In this document: one piece after another, positions 2,200 to 58,584 of the stretch
Position numbering within the stretch: the first letter of the stretch is position 1
How the letters are laid out: every line of letters starts with the position of its first letter
NCBI GenBank assembly: GCA_964016885.1
Contig: OZ024742.1
Location: forward strand, 54,002,001-54,066,000
Reading direction: 5' to 3'
From: Eledone cirrhosa
Lineage: Eukaryota
Length of the DNA: 64,000 nt
Notes under the pieces: generated by a model
Told to the model about the DNA's origin: nothing
The model's database searches: none
What the model saw: only the letters and a program-made list of their open reading frames with translations
Translations under genes and position numbers: made by a program

Positions 2200-3840
2200 T
2201 TGAAAAAAAGAAAAAGGAACAAAAGAAAGGAGAAAGATAGAAGAGGAAAGAAAGAACGATTATATATATTGATAGTGAAAATAGAGTGCATGAAGAGATA
2301 AACATAGACAGCGTATGTATATCTAAATGAGAGAAGAAATGAGAATAGCGTGGAAGAATAATATTTATTTTTGATTATAATACTTATAATGATAGGTTGA
2401 AAAATTAGATTAAAATTAAATTAAACTTAAAAATTAGAAATCAAAATTAAAGATTAAAATTGACCTTAATATTAAAGATTTAATTTAATAATTTAATATT
2501 AATAATTATGTTAAGGATTATAAATTATTTAAATAAATATATAGTATTTTACATTAGAGCAAAACTAGTATAGTTTATTTTATTAAAAGTTGTAAGTCAA
2601 AATTTAAACATCCTCATAATTCTAAATTTATGAAAAATTTACGAGAGTTTACAAAAGAATAACCACTTAGTTATATTATAAAAACAGTAAGGAAGTGTAA
2701 AGGAAGTTAGAAGTGATTTTTTAAGAACTCAGAATACTCTAAGGATTAAATGTTATAAAGTTAAAAAGTTAAAAACTTTTTATCTTAAGAATATAATTAA
2801 AACATGAACCATATGTTATTTTATACGAAGTCATAAATTTACTTGCTATAAAGTTAAAACATTAACATTAAAACATTAAAAAAATGTATCATAAGAATAT
2901 ATTTAAAGCATAAACCATAGGTTATTCCACATATATATTAAAAAAACCTATATATAAAAATCATATGTTTTAAAACGTTTTAAGATATAACAAATATAAA
3001 AATATTGGGAGATATGAAAATAATGTTTTTTCTATATCTTTCAAAGGAATTTTCAAAGATTTTTCCTAAAACCGTCCGTAAGTTTTTCAAGAAACAAATT
3101 TTTCTTAAAGCAGTCATATAAACATTTTTTATAATCTATCGATAGGTGTAATAATATAAAGTTATAGTATATATATGTGAAGTAGAGATATGAATCATAT
3201 ATAGATATAGAAGACATTATGTAAAAGAGATAAATCATATATTACATTTTATATATATATTTAAAAGTTGAGTTTAAACGATGTTTGCAGGAACTGAATA
3301 AATTATTTCGCAAATTAATAGAGTTCTTACTTTTTAGTATAAAGGATATTTCTGCAACACAAAGAGAGCAATTTCGGGATAAAGTAGTGTATGAAGGAGC
3401 ATTGGAAATAATTTTCCAAAGTAAAGAATAGTTAATATTCTTGGATTTCAGGTCCTATAATAAGTTAGATAGAGAAGTTGAAGATTTTTTACCAATATTC
3501 GTAAAGGAACATTTATGGTTATTAAAACGACATTTGAAGTCTGTGGAAGTAGAGCCGACATAATTAAAAGAGTTTTCATTTGTTTTAACATTACAGTTGT
3601 ATACTATATTTTTAACTAAACAATTATTATTTAGAGGACAGTTAGATTTATTTCTACAATTACATTTATCTAAATTTATATTATTGGGAGCCGTAACATT
3701 ATATTGGATATTGCTAGGGGTATTAATGCTATTCTGGTTAGGTTTCAAGTTTCTATTATTAATTCTATTAATATTCTGCGCTAAATTCATAGTGGCGGAA
3801 TATGAGAGTTTAATAGTATGTCTATTAAAGATTGAGTAAT
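2200..3840 (-). mobile_element. 5'-truncated Naiad-type Penelope-like element: GIY-YIG domain (~3240-3840) plus AT-rich 3' UTR
   Basis: KCNCRNKSNCPLNNNCLVKNIVYNCNVK..YVGSTSTDFKCRFNNH; premature stop at 3455, then CSLC..N..CKHR. Homologous to ORF 40099-42105. Confidence 0.85.
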
Positions 3841-3881
3841 ACCTGTGTGTATACGCAATATTTATTTATAAAACAAATCTG

Positions 3882-3947
3882 TATTTTATCTGATGAAAGC
3901 GCACCATAATTTGCCTTGGTTGCCCTTGAAATATGTATAATAAAATA
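3882..3947 (+). ncRNA. Type I hammerhead ribozyme in an inverted pLTR-like segment
   Basis: TATTTTAT-CTGATGA-AAGCGCACC..GGTTGCCCTT-GAAA-TATGTA-TA-ATAAAATA; 8-bp stem I. A sister copy lies at 50895-50955 (-). Confidence 0.75.
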
Positions 3948-12490: not shown

Positions 12491-12732
12491 TCAGTTTCTG
12501 TCATGTATGTATAAATATATATTATCTCTACGGTGAAATCTTAGAAATAAATATATGTTAAATCAAAAAAATAAATATAAATATAAATATATCTATATCT
12601 ATATATATATATATATATAAGTTGAAAAAAATGAAAACGAAATTTCATTTCTCACTCTTAGTATGGCACTTACTTAAATGTAAGTATGTATGTATACGTA
12701 CATACATATATGTATACAGACGTACAGTAGTA

Positions 12733-12822
<90 letters not shown>

Positions 12823-13002
12823 TATACATACACATACACATATGCATACAGGTACACATACATATATGCACGCATCAGTTTAGCCGACGTTTATTATAAC
12901 GCGTGCTTTGTTCGTTTGTTTGTCAACAAATCGAACAGCCTGAATTTATGCCATACAGTGTTAAGGCAACCACGTCACCTTTTTGTTCAACACTGACACA
13001 GG

Positions 13003-13047
13003 AACGATGTACTAGTTTCAAGCTTGTTAGCTATCATCAGCACCGTT
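13003..13047 (-). ncRNA. Minimal type I hammerhead, array A unit 1
   Basis: AACGGTG-CTGATGA-T-AGCT-AACA-AGCT-T-GAAA-CTAG-TA-CATCGTT; predicted cut between 13010 and 13009. Confidence 0.85.
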
Positions 13048-13093
13048 TACCCATCTGCCAGATAGTTGAACGTTCGAAAGTATATACTTTCCT

Positions 13094-13129
13094 TATGAAA
13101 ATTAACGGCTGAGCAGCCTAATTTGCATA
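13094..13129. promoter_or_regulatory. Octamer-containing hairpin (ATTTGCAT at 13121-13128; also 13674, 14201, 14746)
   Basis: TATGAAAATTA-AC-GGCTG-AG-CAGCC-TAATTTGCATA; the octamer is a perfect consensus and is conserved in array B. Function is inferred. Confidence 0.45.
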
Positions 13130-13281
13130 TTGAGTGAGTTAAATCGGTCAGGCATACCGAGAACGATAAGTTGAAAAAAATGAAAACGAAATTTCATTTC
13201 TCACTCTTAGTATGGCACTTACTTAAATGTAAGTATGTATGTATACGTACATACATATATGTATACAGACGTACAGTAGCA

Positions 13282-13375
<94 letters not shown>

Positions 13376-13555
13376 TATACATACACATACACATATGCAT
13401 ACAGGTACACATACATATATGCACGCATCAGTTTAGCCGACGTTTATTATAACGCGTGCTTTGTTCGTTTGTTTGTCAACAAATCGAACAGCCTGAATTT
13501 ATGCCATACAGTGTTAAGGCAACCACGTCACCTTTTTGTTCAACACTGACACAGG

Positions 13556-13600
13556 AACGATGTACTAGTTTCAAGCTTGTTAGCTATCATCAGCACCGTT
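13556..13600 (-). ncRNA. Minimal type I hammerhead, array A unit 2
   Basis: Identical to 13003-13047. Confidence 0.85.
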
Positions 13601-13834
13601 TACCCATCTGCCAGATAGTTGAACGTTCGAAAGTATATACTTTCCTTATGAAAATTAACGGCTGAGCAGCCTAATTTGCATATTGAGTGAGTTAAATCGG
13701 TCAGGCATACCGAGAACGATAAGTTGAAAAAAATGAAAACGAAATTTCATTTCTCACTCTTAGTATGGCACTTACTTAAATGTAAGTATGTATGTATACG
13801 TACATACATATATGTATACAGACGTACAGTAGCA

Positions 13835-13902
<68 letters not shown>

Positions 13903-14082
13903 TATACATACACATACACATATGCATACAGGTACACATACATATATGCACGCATCAGTTTAGCCGACGTTTATTATAACGCGTGCTTTGTTCGTTTGTT
14001 TGTCAACAAATCGAACAGCCTGAATTTATGCCATACAGTGTTAAGGCAACCACGTCACCTTTTTGTTCAACACTGACACAGG

Positions 14083-14127
14083 AACGATGTACTAGTTTCA
14101 AGCTTGTTAGCTATCATCAGCACCGTT
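14083..14127 (-). ncRNA. Minimal type I hammerhead, array A unit 3
   Basis: Identical to 13003-13047. Confidence 0.85.
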
Positions 14128-14361
14128 TACCCATCTGCCAGATAGTTGAACGTTCGAAAGTATATACTTTCCTTATGAAAACTAACGGCTGAGCAGCCTA
14201 ATTTGCATATTGAGTGAGTTAAATCGGTCAGGCATACCGAGAACGATAAGTTGAAAAAAATGAAAACGAAATTTCATTTCTCACTCTTAGTATGGCACTT
14301 ACTTAAATGTAAGTATGTATGTATACGTACATACATATATGTATACAGACGTACAGTAGCA

Positions 14362-14447
<86 letters not shown>

Positions 14448-14627
14448 TATACATACACATACACATATGCATACAGGTACACATACATATATGCACGCAT
14501 CAGTTTAGCCGACGTTTATTATAACGCGTGCTTTGTTCGTTTGTTTGTCAACAAATCGAACAGCCTGAATTTATGTCATACAGTGTTAAGGCAACCACGT
14601 CACCTTTTTGTTCAACACTGACACAGG

Positions 14628-14672
14628 AACGATGTACTAGTTTCAAGCTTGTTAGCTATCATCAGCACCGTT
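14628..14672 (-). ncRNA. Minimal type I hammerhead, array A unit 4
   Basis: Identical to 13003-13047. Confidence 0.85.
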
Positions 14673-14818
14673 TACCCATCTGCCAGATAGTTGAACGTTC
14701 GAAAGTATATACTTTCCTTATGAAAATTAACGGCTGAGCAGCCTAATTTGCATATTGAGTGAGTTAAATCGGTCAGGCATACCGAGAACGATAAGTTGAG
14801 AAAAATGAAAACAAAATT

Positions 14819-14884
<66 letters not shown>

Positions 14885-15837: not shown

Positions 15838-18460
15838 AGGATAACAAAATATCGTTATAGGCAATCCAATTAGAGGTTGTGAATACTTCTTATAACAACT
15901 AATAATCAAGCTCTGGGGTAACACAAATTAAGCAATAGATTGGTTTAATAAATTAGTCAATAGAGAATCTTCCGACTTTTGACATAAATGACATAAATGA
16001 CTACTACTCTTCTATTTCCCCAGTTACCCTAAATAAGGCACTATTCTTTGCACCAAAAAATTCTGACCTTTCACCAGATGAAATTAAAATAATACTAGCT
16101 GCTAGAAGAACAATAATTAAATTCGACAATACTTACTGGGAGCGAAAAAATAGACAGAATAACTTCGATATAACTATGGGATCAAATGATTCAGGCCAAA
16201 TTATAGACATTGTTGGAATTTATATAGCACATTTCTTACATAGGGAATTTGATAACCTACAAGGAGGAATCTATAGAGATGATACATTACTTTTAGCTAA
16301 AAACTTAAATAATCTAAACTTAGAAAGATTAAGGAAAAAGATTAGAAAATTTTAATAATTTAGGCCTTTACATCACTTTTAAACCCAACTCTAAAAAAGC
16401 TAACTTCTCAGATGTATCGCTCAACCTTAACCCAGGACTAATAGAACCCTTCCATAAAAATAATGAAAATTTAGCTTACATTGATTATAACTCTAATCAC
16501 CCTCGATCCAAAATTAACTCCATAGCACATAGTATATCCATTAGAATTTCGCGCCTATCTTCTAACAGAAATTTTTAATGAACACGCTAACTACTACAAC
16601 ATAGCTTTACTTAAGGCAGGCCATAATGAGATACTCAAATACTTACCAAATACAAAAAATAACAACACACTTAATATTAATAGCACCATCCACACCTATA
16701 GAAACAACAAACCTAGGACTATACATAAAAATTGGCAACAAACATGTAAATTAAAGGAACAGAATACTAATATAAAGACCACTAATAACTATAGAAGATG
16801 CAGAAATAGAAACTACTCATGGTTCAATACAGTGTTTAACTCCTCTATAAAAACTAAGGTACCTTACACTTTCTTCAAATTAGTTGACAACTATTTCCCT
16901 AAAATTCATAAATATCATAAAATTTTTAATAGAAAAACTATCAAACTATCATACTCCACTGCCAACAACATAGAATCGCACATACATAAAATTAACTATA
17001 AAATAATCTATAATACAAGTGACCCTCAAATAAGTACCATAACACATAATACAAAACATAAGCATATAACATCATCACAACCAAACACACGCCAGAGTAC
17101 ATCACCACAATACATCAACAAACCCAATTCTCAGCCCATGCATAGCAACCTACAAAACCACATAGAAGAACCGGCGCATAGAAAAGCATCTAAATGTAAC
17201 TGCCATCTACCTAACAAATGCCCTTTACAAAATAGAGACAAATATAGTATACCTATGTACTATAAATTCAGGTAGCTTAGCATGGCATTACATAGGTTCC
17301 ACAGCTGGGGAGTTTAAGAAAAGGTGTTACGTACATAGACACTCTATGACTGACAGGAATCTCTCAAAGACAACGACTCTCGCCAATAAAATCTGGCAAC
17401 TCAAAGATGCAAACATGGAATATAAAATCAGCTGGACAAAGCTATCAAATTGGTAAATCCCACTGTAGTCTCTGTAATATGGAACTTTTCCAAATTTTAA
17501 ATTTCAATAAAATTCTTCTTAACAGTAAAATTGAAAACATAATTTTTGTCGACATAAATCGGCGATTAAATTTGAGAACTTTAGACCAGCTTAATTCCAT
17601 CTTATCTATTCTATAACCCAGATTGTACCACTTGGATCTATTATAATATCACATTATCAGCATCATCATCATTATAATTATAATTATAATTATAATTGTC
17701 ATCATCTATCAAAGAACAACATCAGAACCTCTTATATTTACATTCTTATTTTATATATCTCTATTTTTCACGCTTTATCTTTATGTTCCTCTCCCTAAAT
17801 TTATTTCATCTCTGTCATTTTATTTTATCATATAATATAACTTAAAACTTAATTTATTAATTTATTAAAATAACCAATACACACATAAATATATTTAACA
17901 TTATCATATTTCCACCATTTTTTCATATATTTTTTATATATCTATTTTTTTTTATTTACATTTATTCATGTATTAGCGTTTATTCATTTATTTGTCCCTC
18001 TATTCTTCTTTCTATCATACGTTATTTTTACTTATGTTTGTCTCTCCTCTATCTACCATCATCTTCTATATATCTTCCTCTCTTTATATTTCTATCTATA
18101 ATAATTTCTCCTTTTCTTCTTTATTTTTCCTTCTTTCTTTCTTTTCCCTTCTTCTTCTTTCTCCTTCCTTTCCTTTCTTTCTTTACTGTATCTATCTCCC
18201 TTTCTTCCTCTTTTTCTCTCTATATCTTTATTATTAATATTATTATTTGTGATGTAATTTGAATTTGTAAATTTGCCGGTTACATATATATTTTCTTAAC
18301 AGTTTCTGAAGATCTAATAGAGTTAACATCGTATTTAAAATTGAGTGGCACTGCTTTTAGTGTTCAGCAATTTTTAGACAACTCTATCAGTGAAATAATT
18401 GTTAGACTGCAAATAAATCCCCTTTTTTGTACTGTTGAGCATGTTATTCTCCACTTTTTC

Positions 18461-25420: not shown

Positions 25421-26085
25421 CGAAGGAAATGTGGTAAGGAACCAGATGGACCATAACGCAGTAGGGTAGTCGAGTGGGTAATAGGAACGAGTAGGACCCC
25501 GACGGCTGAGCTCAAGCCGTTTCGACGGCTAATTCTGGACTAAATGAAAATAATGTAATGTGATCTACCAGTGCAACGTGAGGACGGACACCTCAAACAA
25601 AGCTTATATAGGATTAACCACTTCAAGGCCCGGCTATACCAACACAGACATACTTTCCGAAACCCGGCCCGGCGTCACGTCACTACACTTTCGGGCCACA
25701 TCTTTTTATATTTATAATATTTTAAATATTTTTCTATATATTTACTCCATATAGATTTACTTATTGTTTCTTTCAACCTCCTATCCTTAGAATCGGCTGT
25801 AGTTGTCACTTTCAACGCTCGACTGGGTTTCCTCCACTCCCTCTCCCTCATTCTTCTACTGGCAAGTTCAGCTACCCCTACCTTCCACAAAATGCCATGA
25901 TAGAATAATGTGTCTCAACAACAAACCTTTGACCAATCCTTGTGACAATCACTTTTACCATATATGGAATTACCCCCTGAGAAGTTCGGCAATCCATTTA
26001 CCAGGATAAAAATTTTCATTTCGTCCAGAATTAGCCGTCGAAACGGCTTGAGCTCAGCCGTCGGGGTCCTACTCGTTCCTATATA
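25418..26085 (+). mobile_element. Short PLE insertion: inverted pLTR (25418-25553, -) + GIY-YIG remnant + HHR (25972-26067), between (TA)n tracts
   Basis: VIYQCNVRTDTSNKAYIGLT. 25481-25550 is the reverse complement of ~26012-26082. HHR: ACCCC-CTGAGAA..AGCCGTC-GAAA-CGGCT..AGCCG-TC-GGGGT (G8 mutated). Confidence 0.8.
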
Positions 26086-36319: not shown

Positions 36320-36386
<67 letters not shown>

Positions 36387-36431
36387 TAAACAAATAATGA
36401 ACAAACAATTCCTTATATTAAACAAAAAAAG

Positions 36432-36586
36432 TTCATTATTTAACGATCGTTTCTAGGATATATATGTGTTATAATTGGTATGCATATTCAACAGATCTAT
36501 GTACAAAATTATACAAAATTATACAAATTATCAAGATTAAATATACATACCAAACACATATATACGCCGTCTTCAGAAATAATGAA
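36432..36586 (-). ncRNA. Long-stem-II hammerhead (mirror of 47166-47320)
   Basis: Reverse complement of 47166-47320. Confidence 0.8.
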
Positions 36587-37404
36587 GTATATTTATTGAT
36601 AATAACAACAATTCAAAATTTCAGTTCAAAATTGACCAATGAAAACACAAAGGGTTAAATGCAGTTCGGTGTGTGTATATACATGTAAAACCCTTACACA
36701 TATTTTACAAAAATGTATGTATAATTTGTATACGCATACTAAAAGGATGGATGCAAATACGAAATTTCAAGGTTAATGTCTCTGTGAGCTTACAATGCGC
36801 AGATAAGATACTTATGAAATCAAGTATATAAATATATTTTTTCATACTCACACATATCAGTACAATCACACATACACGCGCGTATATGCATAAATATACA
36901 CATAACCACGAACATACAAACACACACACACCCCCACTCACATTTATATATGTGGATATAAAATCATAAGCACATGGATATTAATTCACTCACATAAAAC
37001 ACTGGCACACACATTTCTAGATCAAGATACAGAAATTAGGTGGGAGGGGGGGGAGGGGTCAGTATTCAACTGTCTGAGCAAACTGTCTAATATAAATGTA
37101 TCTATAAATTAAGAAAAAAAAAAAATAAAACAATAAAATATAATAAATATAATATAATATACATACACATACAGATATATACACATACATACATGTACTC
37201 ACACATAGAAATATTTACGCATACACACATACACACATACATATACAGTCATACACACACATACACTTACACGAACATACACATACACATATATAAAGAT
37301 ATATATATATACACACACACACACACACGCAACACATACACACATACACATATATATAAAAATAAATAATAAAGATATATACCTATATATATATACACAC
37401 ACAC

Positions 37405-37447
<43 letters not shown>

Positions 37448-37840
37448 CACACACATACATCTAAATATACATACACATACATACACACATACATGTACAT
37501 ACATGTACATACATATACGCACATCGATATACATATATATATATATACATATATATATATACACACACATAGACATGTAGATACATACACACATAACTTA
37601 CATACACACATATATATATACATGTATATTCATACATAGAATTAGATATATAATCATACATACTTATGCACTTACTTATATTCATATATACAAATACATA
37701 CGCATCTATATATGCATATATATATAAAAAAAACTACAACCTCACCTAACTCAGACATACAAATAAAAATAATAATAAAAAGGCATATGTATATACATAC
37801 ACACGCATTAATAGAGATATATATATAGAGACACATACAT

Positions 37841-37910
<70 letters not shown>

Positions 37911-37913
37911 ACT

Positions 37914-37955
<42 letters not shown>

Positions 37956-38023
37956 GATATCCACACACTCATACCACCATAAATACACATACAAACACCC
38001 ACATATATATATATATACACACG

Positions 38024-38057
<34 letters not shown>

Positions 38058-38179
38058 TAAAAAACAGACATGCACATATATATATACACATTAACTACAT
38101 TTATATATACACATATTATATACACGTACACAACCTCACTTATACATACATACACATAAGTTATATTATAATAATAAAG

Positions 38180-38234
<55 letters not shown>

Positions 38235-38330
38235 CATATACATACATACATACATACACATACATACATATAAACATATACATACATAAATACACATATA
38301 CTAATAAAGACATATATTCACACATAGACA

Positions 38331-38390
<60 letters not shown>

Positions 38391-39519
38391 CATATATACA
38401 CACACACATATACACAGACACATATACACTCTCACATATATATATGTGTGTGTGCGCACACACACATATGTACACACACACACACAAATACACATAAACA
38501 CATACATATGCATACATGCACACACACACACACATATATCACATAGATACGAAGATAAACATATAAATAGAGAGACATACATATATATACAACACACATA
38601 CACACACATACATACACACGCATATACATATACATATATATATACATATATATATTCCTATATATACATGCATACACATATATACACATATATACACATA
38701 CATACACATATACGTACACACATTCACATACACATACATATATAATGCATATATACACATATATACATACATATACACACTCTTATATACACACGCAATC
38801 TTACATTCATATTTGCATGCGCATATATGTATTTTTATATTTAGATATAAATACCCAAACCTATATAGACACCTACCTACATATATATTCATACATAGAC
38901 GCTTACAAATACAGATGATAATAGTATGGGGGAAAGGGGGGGTTTGGAGAAGGGGATCAAAGTAAATATATGTTTCAAGAAACATAGAAAATTTTCCGTA
39001 TTTTTATCCAATGTATGTTCTTACATATTTTCAGTGTTAGGAAATACGACAAACAAGAACCCAGGCAAAATCTATGCATCTCAAAATAAATAAGTATATC
39101 ATTAATCATATGTTAACTAAACCAAAGATAGTCAACATATTGATTTCTAAGGTGTAAATTAGTTAGGTTTATAATATTTGAAGCAGAATTTTGAAGTCAA
39201 ACAGTAGTAGATTATTAATTACAGTATAACTAAATTAAAGTTAATAACGTTATGGTATCAATATTAGGAAATGAATTTAGTGATAGGGAAAAAAATAAAA
39301 TAAAGTATTACATCGGTAGTAGAATATAAATTATATGTTAACTAAATTAAAAATTATATACTTATTTCAATAGTATATGTTAATTAGGTATACAATACAT
39401 AAAGCAGATACTGTATTTCATCAATAGCATAATATAATTATATGCAAATAGAAATCAAAACTAATACGCATACATATACATATACATACACATACACATA
39501 TACATACATATACACACAC

Positions 39520-39568
<49 letters not shown>

Positions 39569-40098
39569 TACATACATACACATACACATACACACACACA
39601 CATACACATACACATATACATATACATATCTTTTTCAAAAAAATTGCATAGAATATATTAACTAGGTATATATCCAAAACGCATCCCATTCTATGATTAC
39701 ATGACATTCTGTAATTCGTCTGTATAAGGATACTAATTTTAAGCAAATTAAAATTAAAATTAAAATTTTTAGGTTGATTAAAACTAAAACCAAATAATAA
39801 ATATATTTCTAAAATGTATATTAATTAGGTCTATAATACTAAAAATTATTTCTCTGTCATTGGATACACGATATTATTTTGTTATATTTTATCTGTAAAA
39901 GAGTTATAATAAAAGGTTTAAATAAATTAAAATTAATCTATAAATTAAATTACTAAGTATATATTAGTAATATTTAAAGGTTTTTCACAATTTATGATTA
40001 CATAATATTTTATATTCTCATCTGTAATAAAATATTAATTAAATTAAATTTATAGGTTAACTAACATTTAAATTAAATTAATTTCTAAAATAATGTTA

Positions 40099-42168
40099 TT
40101 AATTAGGTTTATAATATTTAAATGTTTTTTTTAGTTTATGATTACACGATATAATTAATTCCTGTCGTTTATTTAATAAGATATCCTTAGACTTCATTAT
40201 TTCAAATAGTTCTTGGGAACATAATCTACATTCATTTCTATTATTTTGATAAGGGGTGGCTCTTTTGAGCACACTCCAGGTCAAATCATATTTTATATTC
40301 TTATTTTTATAACTATTGATTTTTTCTGCTAGAGATGTTGTATTAGCCAGTGCTGCATTTTTAAAACTATGCTTGTGGGTATTAAACCTTGTCTTAAAAT
40401 TGTTAGAGGTAGCTCCTATATATGAGCAAATAGAATCTTTAGTTTTAACATTACATTTATAGACTATGTTGTTAACAAGACAATTCCCTTTTAATGGGCA
40501 GTTTGCTTTGTTTCTACAGTTACATCCTTTCGTTAATTCTGTATTTGAGGAGATATTATGGTTAATTTGATGTACTGGTGGTATACTTATGGTTTTCTTA
40601 CATTTATATGCATTATATGCACTTATATTTTGTTTTATGTTATTTGTTGTAGAGTATGAGAATTTAACTGTAGACCTATTTAAGATTTGATGGTATTTGT
40701 GGTTTGGCGGGAAGTTTTTCTCAAGGATATAAAAAAATTTTTTAGCAATATTATCCTTAACTTGTAAATTAAAAGGAGCATTATACCAAGTAACCCGTCT
40801 ATTACGGTTTCTATGTTGTTTATTATTTTTATTATTTTTATAGGTTGTATCATGATTTTTACTAGGAGGATTAATGTTAATGATCTCACCACAACTATTT
40901 TTAGTTATATTTGTAGATTTAGGTGTTTTATCTTTTTTATTAGGAGTTTTATTATTAATATTTATTATAGTTGTATGATGAGTAGTTTTTTGAGAGTTAT
41001 TATACTTTATATTAGAAGATTTAGTATTTTGGGGTATAGTGTGGGTGGCATTTAGGTGTGTACTTTTCATTTGGTGTTTGTTGGTAATATTATGTTGTAT
41101 GCTTTCAGTATTTTTAGTAGAAGGTATATACTCTAATCTATTTTTGTGGCCACTTCTATCTAGAGCTTCGTTATAGAAGGTCGCATTTTTATCAAATACA
41201 TCTTGGTTAGAAGAAAGGTTAGAAATTCTAAGTGATATATTATATGCAAGGTTTTTAAGGATAGATTTAGGGTGATTAGATTGTGAGTGTATGTAATGTA
41301 AGTTTTGGTTAGGTTTATGGTAAGGTTGGTAGATACCCGTAGCTAAATCTAAAGTTATATCTAGGAAATTTACTACTTTACTTGTTTTTTCAAAAGTAAT
41401 ATTAAGATTATAATAGTCTTTAAGGAAAGTTCTAATATGTTTTTTGTTTTTTTCGATTTCTGAAAGGCTAAGGTTGTTAGAAAGAAGAAGACAGTCATCA
41501 CGATATAAACCACCTTTGAGGTGGGGAAAAGAGGCATTTATGTTGAAAAGGAGAAAGAGGCCCACAAGATCAGTAATTTGGGCGGAATCGCTTGAACCCA
41601 TAGTAATATCAAAAAGATTACTGTATGTGTTTCTGGTCCAGTATTCATTCTGAAATTCAATAAGTGTTAGTCTAGCATGTGTAATAATGTTAATGTCATC
41701 CAAAGTTAAGTTAGATCTATTTTTAGCAAAAATCAATGCTTTGTTCAGGAGTATAGGTGATATAGAAGAATAGTAATTATCTATATCAAATTGTAGGAAA
41801 GAAGCAGAAGATTTACACCTAATATTTTTAAACCAGTTAATTACCTGGGAGGTGTTTTCCCAGAGTGGTAAAATAACGTGTTTTCTTATTTGTGGGATGA
41901 CTCTATCTAAAATTTTTTTGCTAATTATTCCAATATCTGATTTGGAGGGACATATAAGTCTAATAGAAGGATTTGAGTTAAAGTTAGATTTGTGATCTTT
42001 CAGGTTGAAGTGTGGTCTTTTCAATGCCAAAGGTTCAGTTCTATCTTCAATGTTTAGTTTTTTTACTATGTTGTGTGTTTTGTTGTTGATGTTGGTGAGT
42101 GACACATTATTAGATTTTTTATAATTTTTTCTGAGTTCTTTATATATGAACTCGTTATAATGTTCAAT
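40099..42168 (-). CDS. Penelope-like (Naiad-type) reverse transcriptase + C-terminal GIY-YIG endonuclease; open frame, 5'-truncated at the inversion junction
   Basis: FLQFDIDNYYSSI, FDITMGSSDSAQITDLVG, GLYRDD, VNFLDITL, SNHP, CNCRNKANCPLKGNC, IVYKC..SYIGAT..RFNTH, CRLC..N..CNH. The frame stays open upstream of the called GTG at 42105 (IEHYNEFIYKELRKNYKKS) up to the junction. Confidence 0.92.
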   Translation of the reverse strand: MEHYNEFIYKELRKNYKKSNNVSLTNINNKTHNIVKKLNIEDRTEPLALKRPHFNLKDHKSNFNSNPSIRLICPSKSDIGIISKKILDRVIPQIRKHVILPLWENTSQVINWFKNIRCKSSASFLQFDIDNYYSSISPILLNKALIFAKNRSNLTLDDINIITHARLTLIEFQNEYWTRNTYSNLFDITMGSSDSAQITDLVGLFLLFNINASFPHLKGGLYRDDCLLLSNNLSLSEIEKNKKHIRTFLKDYYNLNITFEKTSKVVNFLDITLDLATGIYQPYHKPNQNLHYIHSQSNHPKSILKNLAYNISLRISNLSSNQDVFDKNATFYNEALDRSGHKNRLEYIPSTKNTESIQHNITNKHQMKSTHLNATHTIPQNTKSSNIKYNNSQKTTHHTTIININNKTPNKKDKTPKSTNITKNSCGEIININPPSKNHDTTYKNNKNNKQHRNRNRRVTWYNAPFNLQVKDNIAKKFFYILEKNFPPNHKYHQILNRSTVKFSYSTTNNIKQNISAYNAYKCKKTISIPPVHQINHNISSNTELTKGCNCRNKANCPLKGNCLVNNIVYKCNVKTKDSICSYIGATSNNFKTRFNTHKHSFKNAALANTTSLAEKINSYKNKNIKYDLTWSVLKRATPYQNNRNECRLCSQELFEIMKSKDILLNKRQELIISCNHKLKKTFKYYKPN

Positions 42169-42191
42169 ATTCCGCCCAAATTACTGATCTT

Positions 42192-43658
42192 GTGGGCCTC
42201 TTTCTCCTTTTCAACATAAATGCCTCTTTTCCCCACCTCAAAGGTGGTTTATATCGTGATGACTGTCTTCTTCTTTCTAACAACCTTAGCCTTTCAGAAA
42301 TCGAAAAAAACAAAAAACATATTAGAACTTTCCTTAAAGACTATTATAATCTTAATATTACTTTTGAAAAAACAAGTAAAGTAGTAAATTTCCTAGATAT
42401 AACTTTAGATTTAGCTACGGGTATCTACCAACCTTACCATAAACCTAACCAAAACTTACATTACATACACTCACAATCTAATCACCCTAAATCTATCCTT
42501 AAAAACCTTGCATATAATATATCACTTAGAATTTCTAACCTTTCTTCTAACCAAGATGTATTTGATAAAAATGCGACCTTCTATAACGAAGCTCTAGATA
42601 GAAGTGGCCACAAAAATAGATTAGAGTATATACCTTCTACTAAAAATACTGAAAGCATACAACATAATATTACCAACAAACACCAAATGAAAAGTACACA
42701 CCTAAATGCCACCCACACTATACCCCAAAATACTAAATCTTCTAATATAAAGTATAATAACTCTCAAAAAACTACTCATCATACAACTATAATAAATATT
42801 AATAATAAAACTCCTAATAAAAAAGATAAAACACCTAAATCTACAAATATAACTAAAAATAGTTGTGGTGAGATCATTAACATTAATCCTCCTAGTAAAA
42901 ATCATGATACAACCTATAAAAATAATAAAAATAATAAACAACATAGAAACCGTAATAGACGGGTTACTTGGTATAATGCTCCTTTTAATTTACAAGTTAA
43001 GGATAATATTGCTAAAAAATTTTTTTATATCCTTGAGAAAAACTTCCCGCCAAACCACAAATACCATCAAATCTTAAATAGGTCTACAGTTAAATTCTCA
43101 TACTCTACAACAAATAACATAAAACAAAATATAAGTGCATATAATGCATATAAATGTAAGAAAACCATAAGTATACCACCAGTACATCAAATTAACCATA
43201 ATATCTCCTCAAATACAGAATTAACGAAAGGATGTAACTGTAGAAACAAAGCAAACTGCCCATTAAAAGGGAATTGTCTTGTTAACAACATAGTCTATAA
43301 ATGTAATGTTAAAACTAAAGATTCTATTTGCTCATATATAGGAGCTACCTCTAACAATTTTAAGACAAGGTTTAATACCCACAAGCATAGTTTTAAAAAT
43401 GCAGCACTGGCTAATACAACATCTCTAGCAGAAAAAATCAATAGTTATAAAAATAAGAATATAAAATATGATTTGACCTGGAGTGTGCTCAAAAGAGCCA
43501 CCCCTTATCAAAATAATAGAAATGAATGTAGATTATGTTCCCAAGAACTATTTGAAATAATGAAGTCTAAGGATATCTTATTAAATAAACGACAGGAATT
43601 AATTATATCGTGTAATCATAAACTAAAAAAAACATTTAAATATTATAAACCTAATTAA
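42192..43658 (+). CDS. Inverted duplicate of the same ORF, truncated within RT motif B
   Basis: After its called start codon, the 488-aa translation is identical to the C-terminal part of the 668-aa ORF. Confidence 0.88.
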   Translation: MGLFLLFNINASFPHLKGGLYRDDCLLLSNNLSLSEIEKNKKHIRTFLKDYYNLNITFEKTSKVVNFLDITLDLATGIYQPYHKPNQNLHYIHSQSNHPKSILKNLAYNISLRISNLSSNQDVFDKNATFYNEALDRSGHKNRLEYIPSTKNTESIQHNITNKHQMKSTHLNATHTIPQNTKSSNIKYNNSQKTTHHTTIININNKTPNKKDKTPKSTNITKNSCGEIININPPSKNHDTTYKNNKNNKQHRNRNRRVTWYNAPFNLQVKDNIAKKFFYILEKNFPPNHKYHQILNRSTVKFSYSTTNNIKQNISAYNAYKCKKTISIPPVHQINHNISSNTELTKGCNCRNKANCPLKGNCLVNNIVYKCNVKTKDSICSYIGATSNNFKTRFNTHKHSFKNAALANTTSLAEKINSYKNKNIKYDLTWSVLKRATPYQNNRNECRLCSQELFEIMKSKDILLNKRQELIISCNHKLKKTFKYYKPN

Positions 43659-44188
43659 TAACATTATTTTAGAAATTAATTTAATTTAAATGTTAGTTAA
43701 CCTATAAATTTAATTTAATTAATATTTTATTACAGATGAGAATATAAAATATTATGTAATCATAAATTGTGAAAAACCTTTAAATATTACTAATATATAC
43801 TTAGTAATTTAATTTATAGATTAATTTTAATTTATTTAAACCTTTTATTATAACTCTTTTACAGATAAAATATAACAAAATAATATCGTGTATCCAATGA
43901 CAGAGAAATAATTTTTAGTATTATAGACCTAATTAATATACATTTTAGAAATATATTTATTATTTGGTTTTAGTTTTAATCAACCTAAAAATTTTAATTT
44001 TAATTTTAATTTGCTTAAAATTAGTATCCTTATACAGACGAATTACAGAATGTCATGTAATCATAGAATGGGATGCGTTTTGGATATATACCTAGTTAAT
44101 ATATTCTATGCAATTTTTTTGAAAAAGATATGTATATGTATATGTGTATGTGTATGTGTGTGTGTGTATGTGTATGTGTATGTATGTA

Positions 44189-44237
<49 letters not shown>

Positions 44238-45366
44238 GTGTGTGTATATGTATGTATATGTGTATGTGTATGTATATGTATATGTATGCGTATTAGTTTT
44301 GATTTCTATTTGCATATAATTATATTATGCTATTGATGAAATACAGTATCTGCTTTATGTATTGTATACCTAATTAACATATACTATTGAAATAAGTATA
44401 TAATTTTTAATTTAGTTAACATATAATTTATATTCTACTACCGATGTAATACTTTATTTTATTTTTTTCCCTATCACTAAATTCATTTCCTAATATTGAT
44501 ACCATAACGTTATTAACTTTAATTTAGTTATACTGTAATTAATAATCTACTACTGTTTGACTTCAAAATTCTGCTTCAAATATTATAAACCTAACTAATT
44601 TACACCTTAGAAATCAATATGTTGACTATCTTTGGTTTAGTTAACATATGATTAATGATATACTTATTTATTTTGAGATGCATAGATTTTGCCTGGGTTC
44701 TTGTTTGTCGTATTTCCTAACACTGAAAATATGTAAGAACATACATTGGATAAAAATACGGAAAATTTTCTATGTTTCTTGAAACATATATTTACTTTGA
44801 TCCCCTTCTCCAAACCCCCCCTTTCCCCCATACTATTATCATCTGTATTTGTAAGCGTCTATGTATGAATATATATGTAGGTAGGTGTCTATATAGGTTT
44901 GGGTATTTATATCTAAATATAAAAATACATATATGCGCATGCAAATATGAATGTAAGATTGCGTGTGTATATAAGAGTGTGTATATGTATGTATATATGT
45001 GTATATATGCATTATATATGTATGTGTATGTGAATGTGTGTACGTATATGTGTATGTATGTGTATATATGTGTATATATGTGTATGCATGTATATATAGG
45101 AATATATATATGTATATATATATGTATATGTATATGCGTGTGTATGTATGTGTGTGTATGTGTGTTGTATATATATGTATGTCTCTCTATTTATATGTTT
45201 ATCTTCGTATCTATGTGATATATGTGTGTGTGTGTGTGCATGTATGCATATGTATGTGTTTATGTGTATTTGTGTGTGTGTGTGTACATATGTGTGTGTG
45301 CGCACACACACATATATATATGTGAGTGTGTATATGTGTCTGTGTATATGTGTGTGTGTATATATG

Positions 45367-45420
<54 letters not shown>

Positions 45421-45516
45421 TGTCTATGTGTGAATATATGTCTTTATTAGTATATGTGTATTTATGTATGTATATGTTTATATGTATGTATGTGTATGTA
45501 TGTATGTATGTATATG

Positions 45517-45569
<53 letters not shown>

Positions 45570-45691
45570 CTTTATTATTATAATATAACTTATGTGTATG
45601 TATGTATAAGTGAGGTTGTGTACGTGTATATAATATGTGTATATATAAATGTAGTTAATGTGTATATATATATGTGCATGTCTGTTTTTTA

Positions 45692-45725
<34 letters not shown>

Positions 45726-45793
45726 CGTGTGTATATATATATATATGTGGGTGTTTGTATGTGTATTTATGGTGGTATGAGTGTGTGGATATC

Positions 45794-45835
<42 letters not shown>

Positions 45836-45838
45836 AGT

Positions 45839-45910
<72 letters not shown>

Positions 45911-46303
45911 ATGTATGTGTCTCTATATATATATCTCTATTAATACGTGTGTATGTATATACATATGCCTTTTTATTATTATTTTTATTTGTATGTCTGA
46001 GTTAGGTGAGGTTGTAGTTTTTTTTATATATATATGCATATATAGATGCGTATGTATTTGTATATATGAGTATAAGTAAGTGCATAAGTATGTATGATTA
46101 TATATCTAATTCTATGTATGAATATACATGTATATATATATGTGTGTATGTAAGTTATGTGTGTATGTATCTACATGTCTATGTGTGTGTATATATATAT
46201 ATGTATATATATATATATGTATATCGATGTGCGTATATGTATGTACATGTATGTACATGTATGTGTGTATGTATGTGTATGTATATTTAGATGTATGTGT
46301 GTG

Positions 46304-46346
<43 letters not shown>

Positions 46347-47165
46347 GTGTGTGTGTATATATATATAGGTATATATCTTTATTATTTATTTTTATATATA
46401 TGTGTATGTGTGTATGTGTTGCGTGTGTGTGTGTGTGTGTATATATATATATCTTTATATATGTGTATGTGTATGTTCGTGTAAGTGTATGTGTGTGTAT
46501 GACTGTATATGTATGTGTGTATGTGTGTATGCGTAAATATTTCTATGTGTGAGTACATGTATGTATGTGTATATATCTGTATGTGTATGTATATTATATT
46601 ATATTTATTATATTTTATTGTTTTATTTTTTTATTTTTCTTAATTTATAGATACATTTATATTAGACAGTTTGCTCAGACAGTTGAATACTGACCCCTCC
46701 CCCCCCTCCCACCTAATTTCTGTATCTTGATCTAGAAATGTGTGTGCCAGTGTTTTATGTGAGTGAATTAATATCCATGTGCTTATGATTTTATATCCAC
46801 ATATATAAATGTGAGTGGGGGTGTGTGTGTGTTTGTATGTTCGTGGTTATGTGTATATTTATGCATATACGCGCGTGTATGTGTGATTGTACTGATATGT
46901 GTGAGTATGAAAAAATATATTTATATACTTGATTTCATAAGTATCTTATCTGCGCATTGTAAGCTCACAGAGACATTAACCTTGAAATTTCGTATTTGCA
47001 TCCATCCTTTTAGTATGCGTATACAAATTATACATACATTTTTGTAAAATATGTGTAAGGGTTTTACATGTATATACACACACCGAACTGCATTTAACCC
47101 TTTGTGTTTTCATTGGTCAATTTTGAACTGAAATTTTGAATTGTTGTTATTATCAATAAATATAC

Positions 47166-47320
47166 TTCATTATTTCTGAAGACGGCGTATATATGTGTTT
47201 GGTATGTATATTTAATCTTGATAATTTGTATAATTTTGTATAATTTTGTACATAGATCTGTTGAATATGCATACCAATTATAACACATATATATCCTAGA
47301 AACGATCGTTAAATAATGAA
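47166..47320 (+). ncRNA. Type I hammerhead with ~116-nt stem II in the pLTR of the Naiad element
   Basis: TTCATTATTT-CTGAAGA-[..TATATATGTGTT-TGGTATGTATATT...AATATGCATACCA..AACACATATATA..]-GAAA-CGATCG-TT-AAATAATGAA; perfect 10-bp stem I and palindromic stem III. Confidence 0.82.
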
Positions 47321-48206
47321 CTTTTTTTGTTTAATATAAGGAATTGTTTGTTCATTATTTGTTTAATATTTTATCTTGACTCTGTATACCGTTTATCTTT
47401 CACCGAAAGTCGTTTTTCATTACATCTCTTCTTTCCATGATATCCGGAATACATTGAGTTCTTCATACGGATTGGACACTACCGTAAACTCTTGGTAGAT
47501 TTATCTACATATATATATATATATATAAAAATGAATAGAAGGTTGGCCGAATGTGTGCGTGCGCGCATGTGTATGTATATATGTGTACGTTTGATTTTGA
47601 CATGCTTACCCAATTGATACAGAACAGTCAGAAGGCTCGTGGCAGCATGTATCAACAAGTGTGTGTGACTGGGTCCATGGGAGAGGGGGAGAGAGGGTTT
47701 GTGAGTATATATACTGCAATGTATGTATGTGGCGGTGTGGGTGTCTGTGCATGTAGACGTATGAGTGTGAGTGCATAGATAGGTGTATGTCTGAGTATAT
47801 ATATGTGTGTGTTACTATGTGATTATGTTAGTATGTGTGGGTGCTTACTCTGAAGTGTGAGCAGACGTGTGAGGTACTGAACCCAGCATGACTCCATTGA
47901 AATATGTCGGACGGAAAATAGTTGATGAACCGTGTGGCAGCAGGAACTGACCAGAACTTGTTATGACGTGAAGTAAAAACAGCCAATGGCATGACAAGAG
48001 TGGAAAGAAGGTATTTTGAGGGGTTGATTTTATAACACCCCAGTGATAAAATTTGCTCCGGACATAACAGACGTGTCTGAAAGAACCCACAGAAGTAGAA
48101 TCATCCAGATCCATACAAGGACCATGACTCGAACTACATGCCGGCGAATCATTTGTACCACGAAATAAACTAAGCCCAGATGCATCACTGATTTTTCGTT
48201 TTCTTG

Positions 48207-54765: not shown

Positions 54766-56749
54766 CTATTATTATAATGAAAAATATTTTTGGTCCCCAT
54801 TCATAAAGATGTATCGATTTACCAAGGACACATTATTGTACATATTTTTGGTATAAATATTTTAAGAAATAAGATAATCCTTATTGGTATAATTACAACT
54901 GAACGTTGGCTTCACAATCTTAATTATTCATGGATCGCTTTTACAGAAAAACCGTACTGTTAGTGATCAATAACTAGTAGACTTGCATTCCATTAACTAA
55001 AAATTCTAAAGGTCAAATCATTTCATAAGCGACTGTTATATACTTTCTTACTATTCTAGTCGCATAATTTCGTATGTTATGAATATTTAAAGACGTGTGT
55101 TCATTCATTTCAGTCTTGGTATATTTTCTCTAAACATTCAATTGAAGGGTAAACCACTTGACATCAAAGATGAGAATACAGACATTTTCGCACAATCTTC
55201 GTGTTTATATTTTACGCTGGACATACCACAGACGCAGTAATTACACGTCTACAAATCTAAAAAAGTGCATTATTTCATCTTCTCTCCTCCATTAATGTTT
55301 GCAAATCTACTTATGTTTCGCGTTTCAATAAATTTACTAGATTGTAATTGTTTAAGAGTAGATTTACCGAAAATATTTCTGATAGATTGTACGCTTTTCA
55401 CTAAATCCCGAAAATCAACGCAAAGAAAGAAAACATCTAAAATTTATTCTTTTTAGATGGATGATAATATTACAACCACTGGAATAAGAAAAAGTATATA
55501 TATAAATTTGTAATAAAAAGTGAATTGCATATTTCTAGTCTGTGGCATACGTGTCATGTTTTGACATAGTAAAGTCAAATACTACCTTGTAAAAGTAAAT
55601 AAATTGACGTGGAGAAGTAATGGAAATAAACAATACTATAAATATTGAAAGAATAAGTGAGGGGCCCACATACTTCATTGCAACAATGGATACTTTCTCA
55701 ATGCATTCTATGCTAGATGTTCTATTAGATAATAACTAGAATGTTTTTTCTTCCATACATTTTTTTTTTCCTGCGTTATATTTTCATGTTGTCAAACGGT
55801 AATTTCTGGTTTGTTTCCAATCTCTTGTATTGCAGAACGACGCCATTATCGTATTGTATGTATTTCATTTTTCTAATTTTACATTTTTCGTACATGTCTC
55901 ACAAAAAATATATCACAATTGAAAAACGTTACTGAAATATTCATTGAAAAACTGACCTAAATAATAAACAAGAAACAAAAAATTCCATATATATATTAAC
56001 ATGTCAGTGGGAAATTATACAAATTATCTACGACAAAATATATTTGAAGCAATCATTAAATTAAATATAGAGTAAAATAAAATATCTCATTTCTGAATAA
56101 TACGTGTCAGTCAAATATATGTTGCACAATACACGGAAAGAAATTATATATTAAATATATATTTGATGTATGACAAATTTTATAGAAAAACATATACGAT
56201 TCGTTTCCGTTGTCTTTTAATATATGAACTCAATGAAATATTCTGGAATTTACATTTGAAATTTGCTATATTGCAATTGAAAACTCGTTATATTGAGTTT
56301 CAAGGATCTTAAGTAGTATGTTCATGCCACCAATGTCAAATACTCTGATTAATAAAAAGCTCGGTGGTTTTATAGGGAAAATTCAAAGACCGACCGACGG
56401 TTTGTTATATTCTTACTTATTATATTAGTACTGAGTTTGCTTTACTCGGTGGCACATATCGTAACCAATTTGGGTATGGAAGCACCTAAACTTTTCATAA
56501 CAAATTTGGGTAAGGTGTTTGTGGAAGACCACCAATCGTCCATGCATACCAGTCATCTTTCTCCATGCCACTGATCTTGTCCTAGGGAAAGGCAAAGACC
56601 TATGTATCTATGCGAGGGAGGAAAGCCCTGGACGAGTGCCTTCCATCCTCACATTGATACCATAAACTATTCAACAGGCACACGGTGAAGTTATCATTCT
56701 CTACCATGCCCAACCTTGCAGAGATCATTGCCTCTCTCAATGATGTCCA

Positions 56750-57060
56750 GAGGAATTTGTCTATGTGGGTTCCACAAGTACCGAGTTCAAATCAGGCTTC
56801 CACAACCAGATGTGCTCCTTTAGCAAGAGGTCCAACACTAGTCTAGCCGAGTGCATGTGGAGTCTCAAGGGCGAGAACCGGAACTTCAAATTGAGGTGGA
56901 AAATTCTCCATTTTGCGGGCCCTCGGAGGCTGGACTGCTAGGTTTGTAGGCTCTGTATCCGTGAGAGTGTGGGGACCCTCAAGCTACTTGGGTGGTCGAT
57001 GAAATCTAGGTCCGAAAATTTAAGTAATTGTATATATCGAAGGACCCATATGTTCGCCCA
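56750..57060 (+). pseudogene. Naiad-type GIY-YIG C-terminal fragment (GC-richer subfamily)
   Basis: FVYVGSTSTEFKSGFHNQMCSF..TSLAECMWSLK..LRWKIL..*VCRLCIRE..RSENLSNCIYR. Confidence 0.75.
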
Positions 57061-57194
57061 TATCGCAGGTGGGCGCACCGCGAGGGGCTGCTATCTTTTG
57101 TTTATAACACTTTATTCTTATAAAACTCGGGGTAAGTGCATCCGTTGAATTCTAGCCCCGTGTTTGGTCATTCGATATGTTTGTTTGTATTTTT

Positions 57195-58251
57195 GTACTC
57201 ACGCTCTATGCAAATTAGTAGTGGGCAGACTAATTTGCATAGAGCGTGAGTACGTACCGGTTCAACGGAGACGATAAAAACAAATAACGAAACGAAATTA
57301 AATTTCGTTTCGTTTGTAACTCACTTTTGTATGACTGACGCTTAAACAATTAAGTTAAAAATGTACATCCACATATGTATACTGAAATACTAGTATGCAT
57401 ATGAATACACACACGTATACATATGTAGATGTACCGAGTTTTTCACTGGTCACTTTACTGTGAGTGTCCAGCTATTCTGTATGTAAACACACAGACAAAC
57501 CGGTTTTTAGAGTCATACTGGTTTTTGAGGAAACACCTTTCCTCTATTCTGCAGAAAGCCAGACAAGGAACATTGAACTAGTTTCGATGTTGTTACATCT
57601 CATCAGCAATATTTACCTATCTTCCGGCCTCTCTAGAGAATCGTAAAAGCACATATCGTTATATGCTTTTTCTATGAAAATTAGTAGTGGGCAGACTAAT
57701 TTGCATAGAGCGTGAGTACGTACCGGTTCAACGGAGACGATAAAAACAAATAACGAAACGAAATTAAATTTCGTTTCGTTTGTAACTCACTTTTGTATGA
57801 CTGACGCTTAAACAATTAAGTTAAAAATGTACATCCACATATGTATACTGAAATACTAGTATGCATATGAATACACACACGTATACATATGTAGATGTAC
57901 CGAGTTTTTCACTGGTCACTTTACTGTGAGTGTCCAGCTATTCTGTATGTAAACACACAGACAAACCGGTTTTTAGAGTCATACTGGTTTTTGAGGAAAC
58001 ACCTTTCCTCTATTCTCTAGAAAGCCAGACAAGGAACTGGCTTTCTGGAGAATAGAGGAAAGGTGTTTCCTCAAAAACCAGTATGACTCTAAAAACCGGT
58101 TTGTCTGTGTGTTTACATACAGAATAGCTGGACACTCACAGTAAAGTGACCAGTGAAAAACTCGGTACATCTACATATGTATACGTGTGTGTATTCATAT
58201 GCATACTAGTATTTCAGTATACATATGTGGATGTACATTTTTAACTTAATT

Positions 58252-58256
<5 letters not shown>
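57195..58256 (-). repeat. Tandem repeat, 466-bp period (~1.8 units), with fold-backs at both ends (candidate retrozyme, family B)
   Basis: 57212-57677 repeats at 57678-58037; 57809-58028 is inverted as 58037-58256; 57195-57219 mirrors 57229-57253. Octamer at 57233 and 57699. Confidence 0.9.
57569..57613 (-). ncRNA. Minimal type I hammerhead, array B
   Basis: AATATTG-CTGATGA-GATGT-AACA-ACATC-GAAA-CTAG-TT-CAATGTT; predicted cut between 57576 and 57575. Confidence 0.87.
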
Positions 58257-58346
<90 letters not shown>

Positions 58347-58584
58347 GTGAATATATATATATATTGTGTGAAAACAAAATAAACATTTGAGATGACTTAC
58401 CAAAGTATTTTTCTTGACATGATCTTTGCAGGAGGTACGGTAACAGTCCAATTTGAGAGTTCATTGTACAGTATCCAAATGGAAGATGGCGGAGTTATTA
58501 TTAATTTAAAGGTATAGTACTAGAAAAAACAAGCGTCTAAGCATGAAGTAAGGGTTAGAGGAGAAATATTTAATTAGAGTCCGT

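Follow-up and report, generated by a model that had tools for sequence, protein, structure and literature searches.

The window, by which we mean the whole stretch of 64,000 nucleotides that was analysed (54002001-54066000), lies within a 3.0-Gb genome rich in TA microsatellites. It contains an array with a unit length of 466 nt, which ends in an inverted copy of part of itself. The unit was numbered on the + strand, which is the cDNA sense, with u1 at 57576 and u466 at the base equivalent to 57575; the predicted ribozyme cut therefore falls between u466 and u1. The features of the locus, in window coordinates, are as follows:

56628 to 57195, + strand: remains of an old, broken Penelope-like element (its endonuclease end and sequence downstream of that), recognised by tblastn to the window's coding element
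57195 to 57219, - strand: 25-nt inverted copy of u120-144, which perfects and extends the unit's natural hairpin
57220 to 58037, + strand: long arm in cDNA sense, u111-466 and then u1-462, without the family's usual u165 start
57553 to 57624, - strand: type I hammerhead ribozyme with its core at 57576-57606 and the predicted cut at 57575/57576
57740 to 57808, + strand: stretch u165-233 between the two fixed starts (Penelope-type tail), delimited by the fixed outer ends
58029 to 58037, no strand: head-to-head joint, an 8-nt loop and one shared base, with arm ends at u462 and u453
58037 to 58256, - strand: mirror (second) arm, u453 down to u234, then a TA run
58255 to 58364, no strand: TA microsatellite, the target

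The geometry of the fold-back was found to be as the sequence-only reading had described it. The segments 57809-58028 and 58037-58256 are inverted copies of 220 nt, 8 nt apart and with one mismatch, and the + arm ends at 58037 (u462), 4 nt short of the position equivalent to the cut. The stretch u165-233 is internal to the long arm here and occurs a second time at 57274-57342; loose TA ends were seen in read contigs at 57274, 57343, 57740 and 57814. The internal parts of the units differ only at 57551 and 58018 (u442 and u443), which are adjacent bases of a near-palindrome. At u442-443 the mirror arm has the majority letters, and each of the long arm's units, 1 and 2, deviates from it at one of these positions. 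No ORF of 80 aa or more was found inside the array, so the ORF with RT and GIY-YIG of an autonomous Penelope-like element is absent; with a GC content of 0.38 in the bin 56001-58000, the array is non-coding and low in GC, as are non-LTR retrozymes.

The ribozyme at 57553-57624 is the sole complete hammerhead in this array. It matched Rfam HH9 with 32.9 bits (E 4.3e-6), under the gathering score of 52, and no match at the gathering level was obtained anywhere in the window. The cut at 57575/57576, after GUU, which had been proposed earlier, was reproduced by direct reading of the core. Helix III is weak and palindromic, with one to two pairs. The family has tandem units at 466-nt spacing and a conserved type I hammerhead core; of about 260 passages sampled, at least 254 retain any given scored position of it, the exception being u1 (GUU or GUC). 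Self-cleavage of the unit transcript is predicted from the motif and the fold. Folding also predicted a helix of about 28 bp (extended helix I), formed by u437-466 with u31-66, in linear, circular and uncut templates, and this helix ends at the same base as the predicted cut.

Other elements were noticed in the window. Array A (12617-14819) consists of some four units, each 553 nt long, of a related hammerhead repeat. Its start lies in a TA run, at the homologue of the u165 site, and it has the ribozyme, the hairpin and the start-site context in common with the 466-nt unit. At 36378-47374 lies an 11-kb head-to-head pair of coding Penelope-like elements, with arms 99.7% identical and frames of 693 and 502 aa; it has a TA run on the left and about 130 extra nucleotides followed by TA on the right, which is the same layout of two arms and one tail. 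More hammerhead-like cores or pieces of broken Penelope-like ORFs are scattered at 3257-3937, 8086, 16191-17544, 20867, 25557-25711, 26903, 27913, 33780, 52451 and 59027. Pfam and PDB searches with the coding Penelope-like ORFs gave no useful match; RT and GIY-YIG are present in the Atlas neighbours of the window ORF that is related to those found behind some retrozyme arms (L220, L081, L139; see below). Between these arm-following ORFs and the 466-nt unit no sequence homology was found.

The remnant to the left of the array gave tblastn E-values of 2e-8 and 1e-5, and its relatives are 70-93% identical. It is cut in mid-sequence at 57195 without a TA run, and other copies run past this point. 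Having neither a TA run nor a u165 start, the left end of the array is not a family end. It had been read as a further snap-back of the reverse transcriptase, and 57195-57219 is indeed the reverse complement of 57229-57253, although the structure looks like a repair scar rather than a reverse-transcription event. We infer that the flank, the TA run and the start of the arm were deleted and that the end was healed by folding back at the u97-133 hairpin; this deletion may have come later or been linked to integration.

In each of the runs X1 and X2 one contig passes at 57195 into sequence that belongs to the old element itself, which points to another allele without this junction, and a contig of run X3 stops at 57195. 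Runs X1-X3 come from one sample, possibly the source of the assembly. Among the read contigs listed, none bridged 57195, nor 58037 (four runs). The lack of a bridging contig at the central joint, among those listed, and the departure of two runs from the window's sequence at 57195 are what a fold-back chimera made during assembly would give. Such an artefact is nevertheless hardly credible, because joints of the same kind, with canonical ends, occur family-wide; moreover, similar head-to-head joints are present in read contigs, and the two arms are not identical.

A TA run followed by the unit from u165 had 2,010 exact matches genome-wide, so the family comprises at least 2,010 insertions, and a second fixed end was found at u234/239. 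We call arms that start at u165 first-kind arms, and those that start at u234/239 second-kind arms. For the statistics, 236 locus records (L031-L266) were picked by end patterns, mostly from the first third of contig C1, with the addition of loci picked by flank patterns, and 373 anchored arms were parsed. Records L001-L030, chosen for their likeness to the window, were dropped before the counts, as were duplicate loci, recognised by junction signature, and unpaired second-kind anchors shorter than 25 nt; after filtering, 356 arms, 345 ends and 227 records were available. The breakpoints, obtained by alignment to the window's unit, are accurate to a few nucleotides, and long arms are censored by the locus length of about 3 kb.

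The inverted head-to-head joint proved to be the commonest form of this element. When both anchors were present, 118 of 120 loci had one arm per start, head to head; one of the exceptions has two u165 arms and the other two u234 arms. Locus L209 looks like a second such case, with a rearranged joint. A further 105 uncensored arms were followed by an inverted arm of the same family without a recognised anchor (50), by a TA run no more than 30 nt away, in many cases preceded by a few bases of the second end (41), by a direct repeat (4) or by other sequence (10). The outer ends lie in TA runs; the first end had been selected by a TA-containing pattern, whereas the partner end had not.

The sequence-only reading held that a single cDNA ran off a cleaved 5' end and then primed itself, giving the mirror arm. 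The 8-nt loop, the one shared base and the containment of this mirror arm in the long arm agree with such a course. A self-primed copy, however, must lie within the first arm and would have no reason for a fixed stop. The mirror arm ends at the fixed u234 start and a TA run, as second arms do in 118 loci, and snap-back leaves the stop exactly at u234 without explanation at this locus. In addition, the second-kind arm reaches beyond the first-kind arm in 60 of the 118 loci and there cannot be a copy of it, and the mirror arm here deviates from both adjacent units at u442-443. Snap-back is thus very improbable, and we are confident that the two arms were primed separately. In the window, the mirror arm would be such a second arm, with the TA target as its primer and its beginning at the second fixed start.

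The two arms appear to come mostly from one source RNA. The identities of the two arms correlate (rho 0.92, n=70), and the median difference is 1 within a locus's own arm pair and 16 across loci (n=67); the own partner was strictly closest in 31 of the 67, tied in 17 and not closest in 19. Ends at most 35 nt apart on the same passage were found 16 times, compared with 7.1 after shuffling. Furthermore, 14 of the 42 first-kind ends of length 20-200 fall at the second start site (P 9e-6), as if one enzyme had hit the other on one RNA. A single shared template is not universal, since some insertions join arms from different RNAs. In L230 and L250 the head-to-head arms belong to two retrozyme families, that of Array A in L230 and a more distant relative in L250. 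Behind three of the 205 first-kind arms (L220, L081, L139) comes a Penelope-like ORF in sense, truncated at its 5' end; this element is a candidate donor of the enzyme, or the arrangement arose by later deletions. In L220 and L081 the ORF ends at the same point before the TA run, with a LINE fragment between in L081. The clean joins showed microhomology of at least 2 nt in 43 of 77 cases, with about 18% expected by chance. In L107 both arms end at u453 and 65 nt of unrelated GC-rich sequence lie in between.

An enrichment of arm ends within about 5 nt of the cut, which the earlier claim of a cleavage footprint had led one to expect, was not seen in the sampled loci. Only 5 of the 345 ends fell in u462-466 (3.1 expected, P 0.2) and 9 in u457-466 (6.2 expected), and the tests within 5, 10 and 15 nt were not significant. 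In u442-466 there were 24 ends (15.8 expected, P 0.03), and just after the cut, in u1-25, there were 7 (15.2 expected). This step between before and after, 24 and 7 ends, had a P of 0.002 at width 25 and of 0.06-0.09 at widths 10, 15 and 40. The cut was crossed by 515 of 531 passages; of 268 first passages, 13 end within the last 25 nt and 3 within the last 5. From this read-through and the failure of the sharp 5-nt prediction we take the majority of templates to have been uncut or circular. Ends are distributed unevenly over the whole unit (chi-square P 0.0002), and the strongest hot spot of the sample is u229-256, not the cut site. Near-symmetric joints, with ends at most 15 nt apart, numbered 14 in 118 loci (7.8 expected). 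Both ends lay within u442-466 at 1 of 120 loci in the unbiased sample, so this class is small.

Symmetric joints were searched genome-wide as a 13-mer followed, across a gap of no more than 25, by a reverse-complemented 13-mer (9-mer and gap 30 in the window u11/465). The loci before the cut numbered 11 at u380 (12 matches, one of two on a small contig being left out), 4 at u410, 6 at u431 (two of them shared with u440), 13 at u440, a window chosen after inspection of the sample, and 15 at u456/452 with the window's own locus included (14 without it). After the cut there was 1 locus at u466, and there were 2 at u11/465, 2 at u37 and 3 at u80. The 26 nt that precede the cut thus hold 27 near-symmetric joints and the stretch just past it 3, with an expected share of 0.34-0.41; the expectation after the cut is inflated because the u11/465 window admits more lopsided pairs, and the first post-cut window alone had 1 joint for 4.8-6.0 expected. 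Relative to the mean of all nine windows, and normalised for match rate and geometry, the two pre-cut windows reached 2.5-3.4 and the two post-cut windows about 0.2. The pre-cut excess persisted with or without microhomology weighting, and the drop after the cut occurs despite an 8-bp palindrome just past it. The control window u380, which has no ribozyme and has a 10-bp palindrome, was also high (11-12 joints).

Canonical ends were present in 25 of the 27 pre-cut loci that were fetched; the window's own locus and L298 were left out among these, and one u456/452 locus on a small contig was also omitted. In 20 of the 25 parsed loci both arms stop on the first passage, in 2 both stop on the second, and 3 have unequal passages. 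One of the 27 pre-cut loci, from the u456/452 set of 14, has an arm that passes the cut. The 20 first-passage loci are the expected product of one cut-to-cut monomer copied from both starts, less 0-25 nt. Their class may make up about 1-3% of insertions, an estimate with 1/120 as its lower value and a rough extrapolation from pattern counts as its upper one. Pre-cut ends are spread flat over u442-466 and do not pile up at u466. Same-passage joints are enriched at other positions too, so the data show a shared stop and not cleavage as such. Five loci on five contigs (L301, L306, L308, L310, L311) have one joint in common, with the u165 arm ending at about u442 and the u234 arm at about u460.

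The claim that hammerhead cleavage produced the template's 5' end thus gains from the pre-cut joint excess and the drop after the cut, and loses from the lack of enrichment within 5 nt; the footprint is partly supported at the family level. As the cause of the family-level edge we hold ribozyme cleavage to be somewhat probable. A GUC-linked marker was found in 8 of 27 pre-cut loci, compared with 36 of 200; this is no clear enrichment and, like the flat spread of the ends and the in vitro result cited below, weighs against cleavage. The same edge is predicted if enzymes stalled on the extended helix I of an uncut multimer or circle, with no cleaved end, because the helix ends at the cut by construction. 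Several observations suit stalling: the helix u437-466/u31-66 is predicted in linear, circular and uncut forms alike, the ends are flat across u442-466, other hot spots lie at hairpins or palindromes, and a helix present only on the first lap of a circle would also yield first-passage ends. On the other hand, the ends do not accumulate where the helix is entered, and no excess is seen at the second long hairpin, u254-325 (14, 14 and 11 ends where 21, 20 and 20 were expected). Nor is the trailing arm consistently the shorter one: among the 20 first-passage loci it is longer in 10, shorter in 8 and equal in 2. Stalling in the long helix of the ribozyme is, in our judgement, an unlikely origin of the excess, and cleavage is the likelier of the two.

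The ribozyme might also be uninvolved, the position of the joints being set by chance and microhomology, or by a long palindrome whose centre collapsed afterwards. Symmetric joints are generally enriched (14 of 118 within 15 nt, 7.8 expected) and termination is uneven along the whole unit, which speaks for this reading, and chance is adequate for the window's own locus. It does not account for a pre-cut excess and post-cut drop that survive microhomology weighting (27 and 3), nor for an edge that appears in two largely independent data sets, and we regard it as quite improbable for the family.

At the locus in the window, the mirror arm is a typical first-passage arm, and the long arm read through at least one intact cut site before it stopped. 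Coincidences of this unequal-passage class occurred 10 times in the sample, which is the chance level (11.7 expected), so that this joint may be a footprint or chance. That this particular joint records cleavage seems to us rather doubtful. This single locus is weak evidence by itself, and the value lies in the family statistics.

Taken together, the array is likely to be one insertion of a non-coding hammerhead retrozyme whose copies are composed of two back-to-back arms that begin at fixed starts in TA runs, in a family of which a minority was copied from ribozyme-cut linear RNA. Each nicked target strand would prime one cDNA, from u165 and from u234/239 respectively, usually on the same RNA; a Penelope-type enzyme would make both cDNAs, and their 3' ends would be joined after trimming by 0-25 nt. 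Most templates, being uncut multimers or circles, would be read through the ribozyme, and an estimated 1-3% would end there. In this minority a ribozyme-cut linear RNA would have been copied, with both arms ending just short of the cut. A possibility to which we give nearly even weight is that dozens of insertions each represent a single cut-to-cut monomer of which two copies, one from each fixed start, went into the two strands of one break; this would mean hammerhead cutting in the germ line and retrotransposition of the linear products by a two-enzyme Penelope complex able to load two different RNAs.

In L1 twin priming, the second primer sits at variable internal sites and the arms do not duplicate each other, whereas the arms described here overlap and begin at two fixed sites with 70 nt between them. 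The two processes are alike in that both target strands prime and an inverted joint results, as outlined in the passages on L1 (PMC2837659).

As far as sequence tells, the element would belong to the animal non-LTR retrozymes. It resembles them, as they are presented in the relevant passages of two sources (PMC7229834; bioRxiv 10.64898/2026.07.22.740005), in its non-coding tandem unit, type I hammerhead and low GC, and its weak palindromic helix III is like that of one axolotl motif described there. The unit is 466 nt long, compared with the 170-400 nt quoted for these elements. With just one complete ribozyme, the locus alone falls outside the rule of two consecutive units given in the bioRxiv text (10.64898/2026.07.22.740005). 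Dependence on Penelope-like elements is proposed in these passages, and those of PMC7229834 state that linear monomers of animal retrozymes exist in vivo. Head-to-head arms, fixed starts and breakpoint statistics are not described in the retrozyme passages of either, where the word 'inverted' occurs 0 times (PMC7229834) and once, in a reference title (bioRxiv 10.64898/2026.07.22.740005).

The likeness to Penelope-like elements is closer in the form of the insertion. Passages on these describe an inverted 5'-truncated copy, a tail on one end and a TA microsatellite target (PMC8557442), and a Penelope-like protein with two internal start sites that extends both strands (PMC11167929). The element in the window differs from them in coding no protein, in a tail of about 70 nt instead of 30-40, and in the near invariance of one start site per arm, as far as the passages of these sources go.

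No prior report of such a footprint at the cut site was found in the literature searched, which lay mostly outside subscription papers and supplements. As far as that search goes, the drop of joints across the cut, the monomer-sized class and the arms from different RNAs are new, although the last (L230 with the Array A family; L220, L081 and L139 with the coding Penelope-like element) could be later deletions. Young insertions whose joints fall off at the cut offer an in vivo readout of what the hammerhead does in Penelope-like elements and retrozymes; the shape of an insertion separates the types of template, linear monomer from multimer or circle. If the reading is true, the genome holds a heritable record of germ-line hammerhead cutting, and linear products are retrotransposed too, not only circles and multimers.

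In the passages on an in vitro Penelope-like system, the ribozyme was dispensable and the cut was neither the start nor the end of any read (PMC11167929), whereas a signal at the ribozyme cut is seen here. The nearest parallel is R2, where the position of cleavage by the HDV-like ribozyme correlates with the genomic 5' junctions, according to the part of the source that deals with them (PMC3774820). The two would be alike in that cleavage sets the template's 5' end and leaves a trace in the junctions, with variability through chance microhomology. The ribozyme and the class of element are different, and in those passages the cleavage of R2 defines full-length copies, whereas here a few per cent of the insertions, and the joint between two cDNAs, would be affected.
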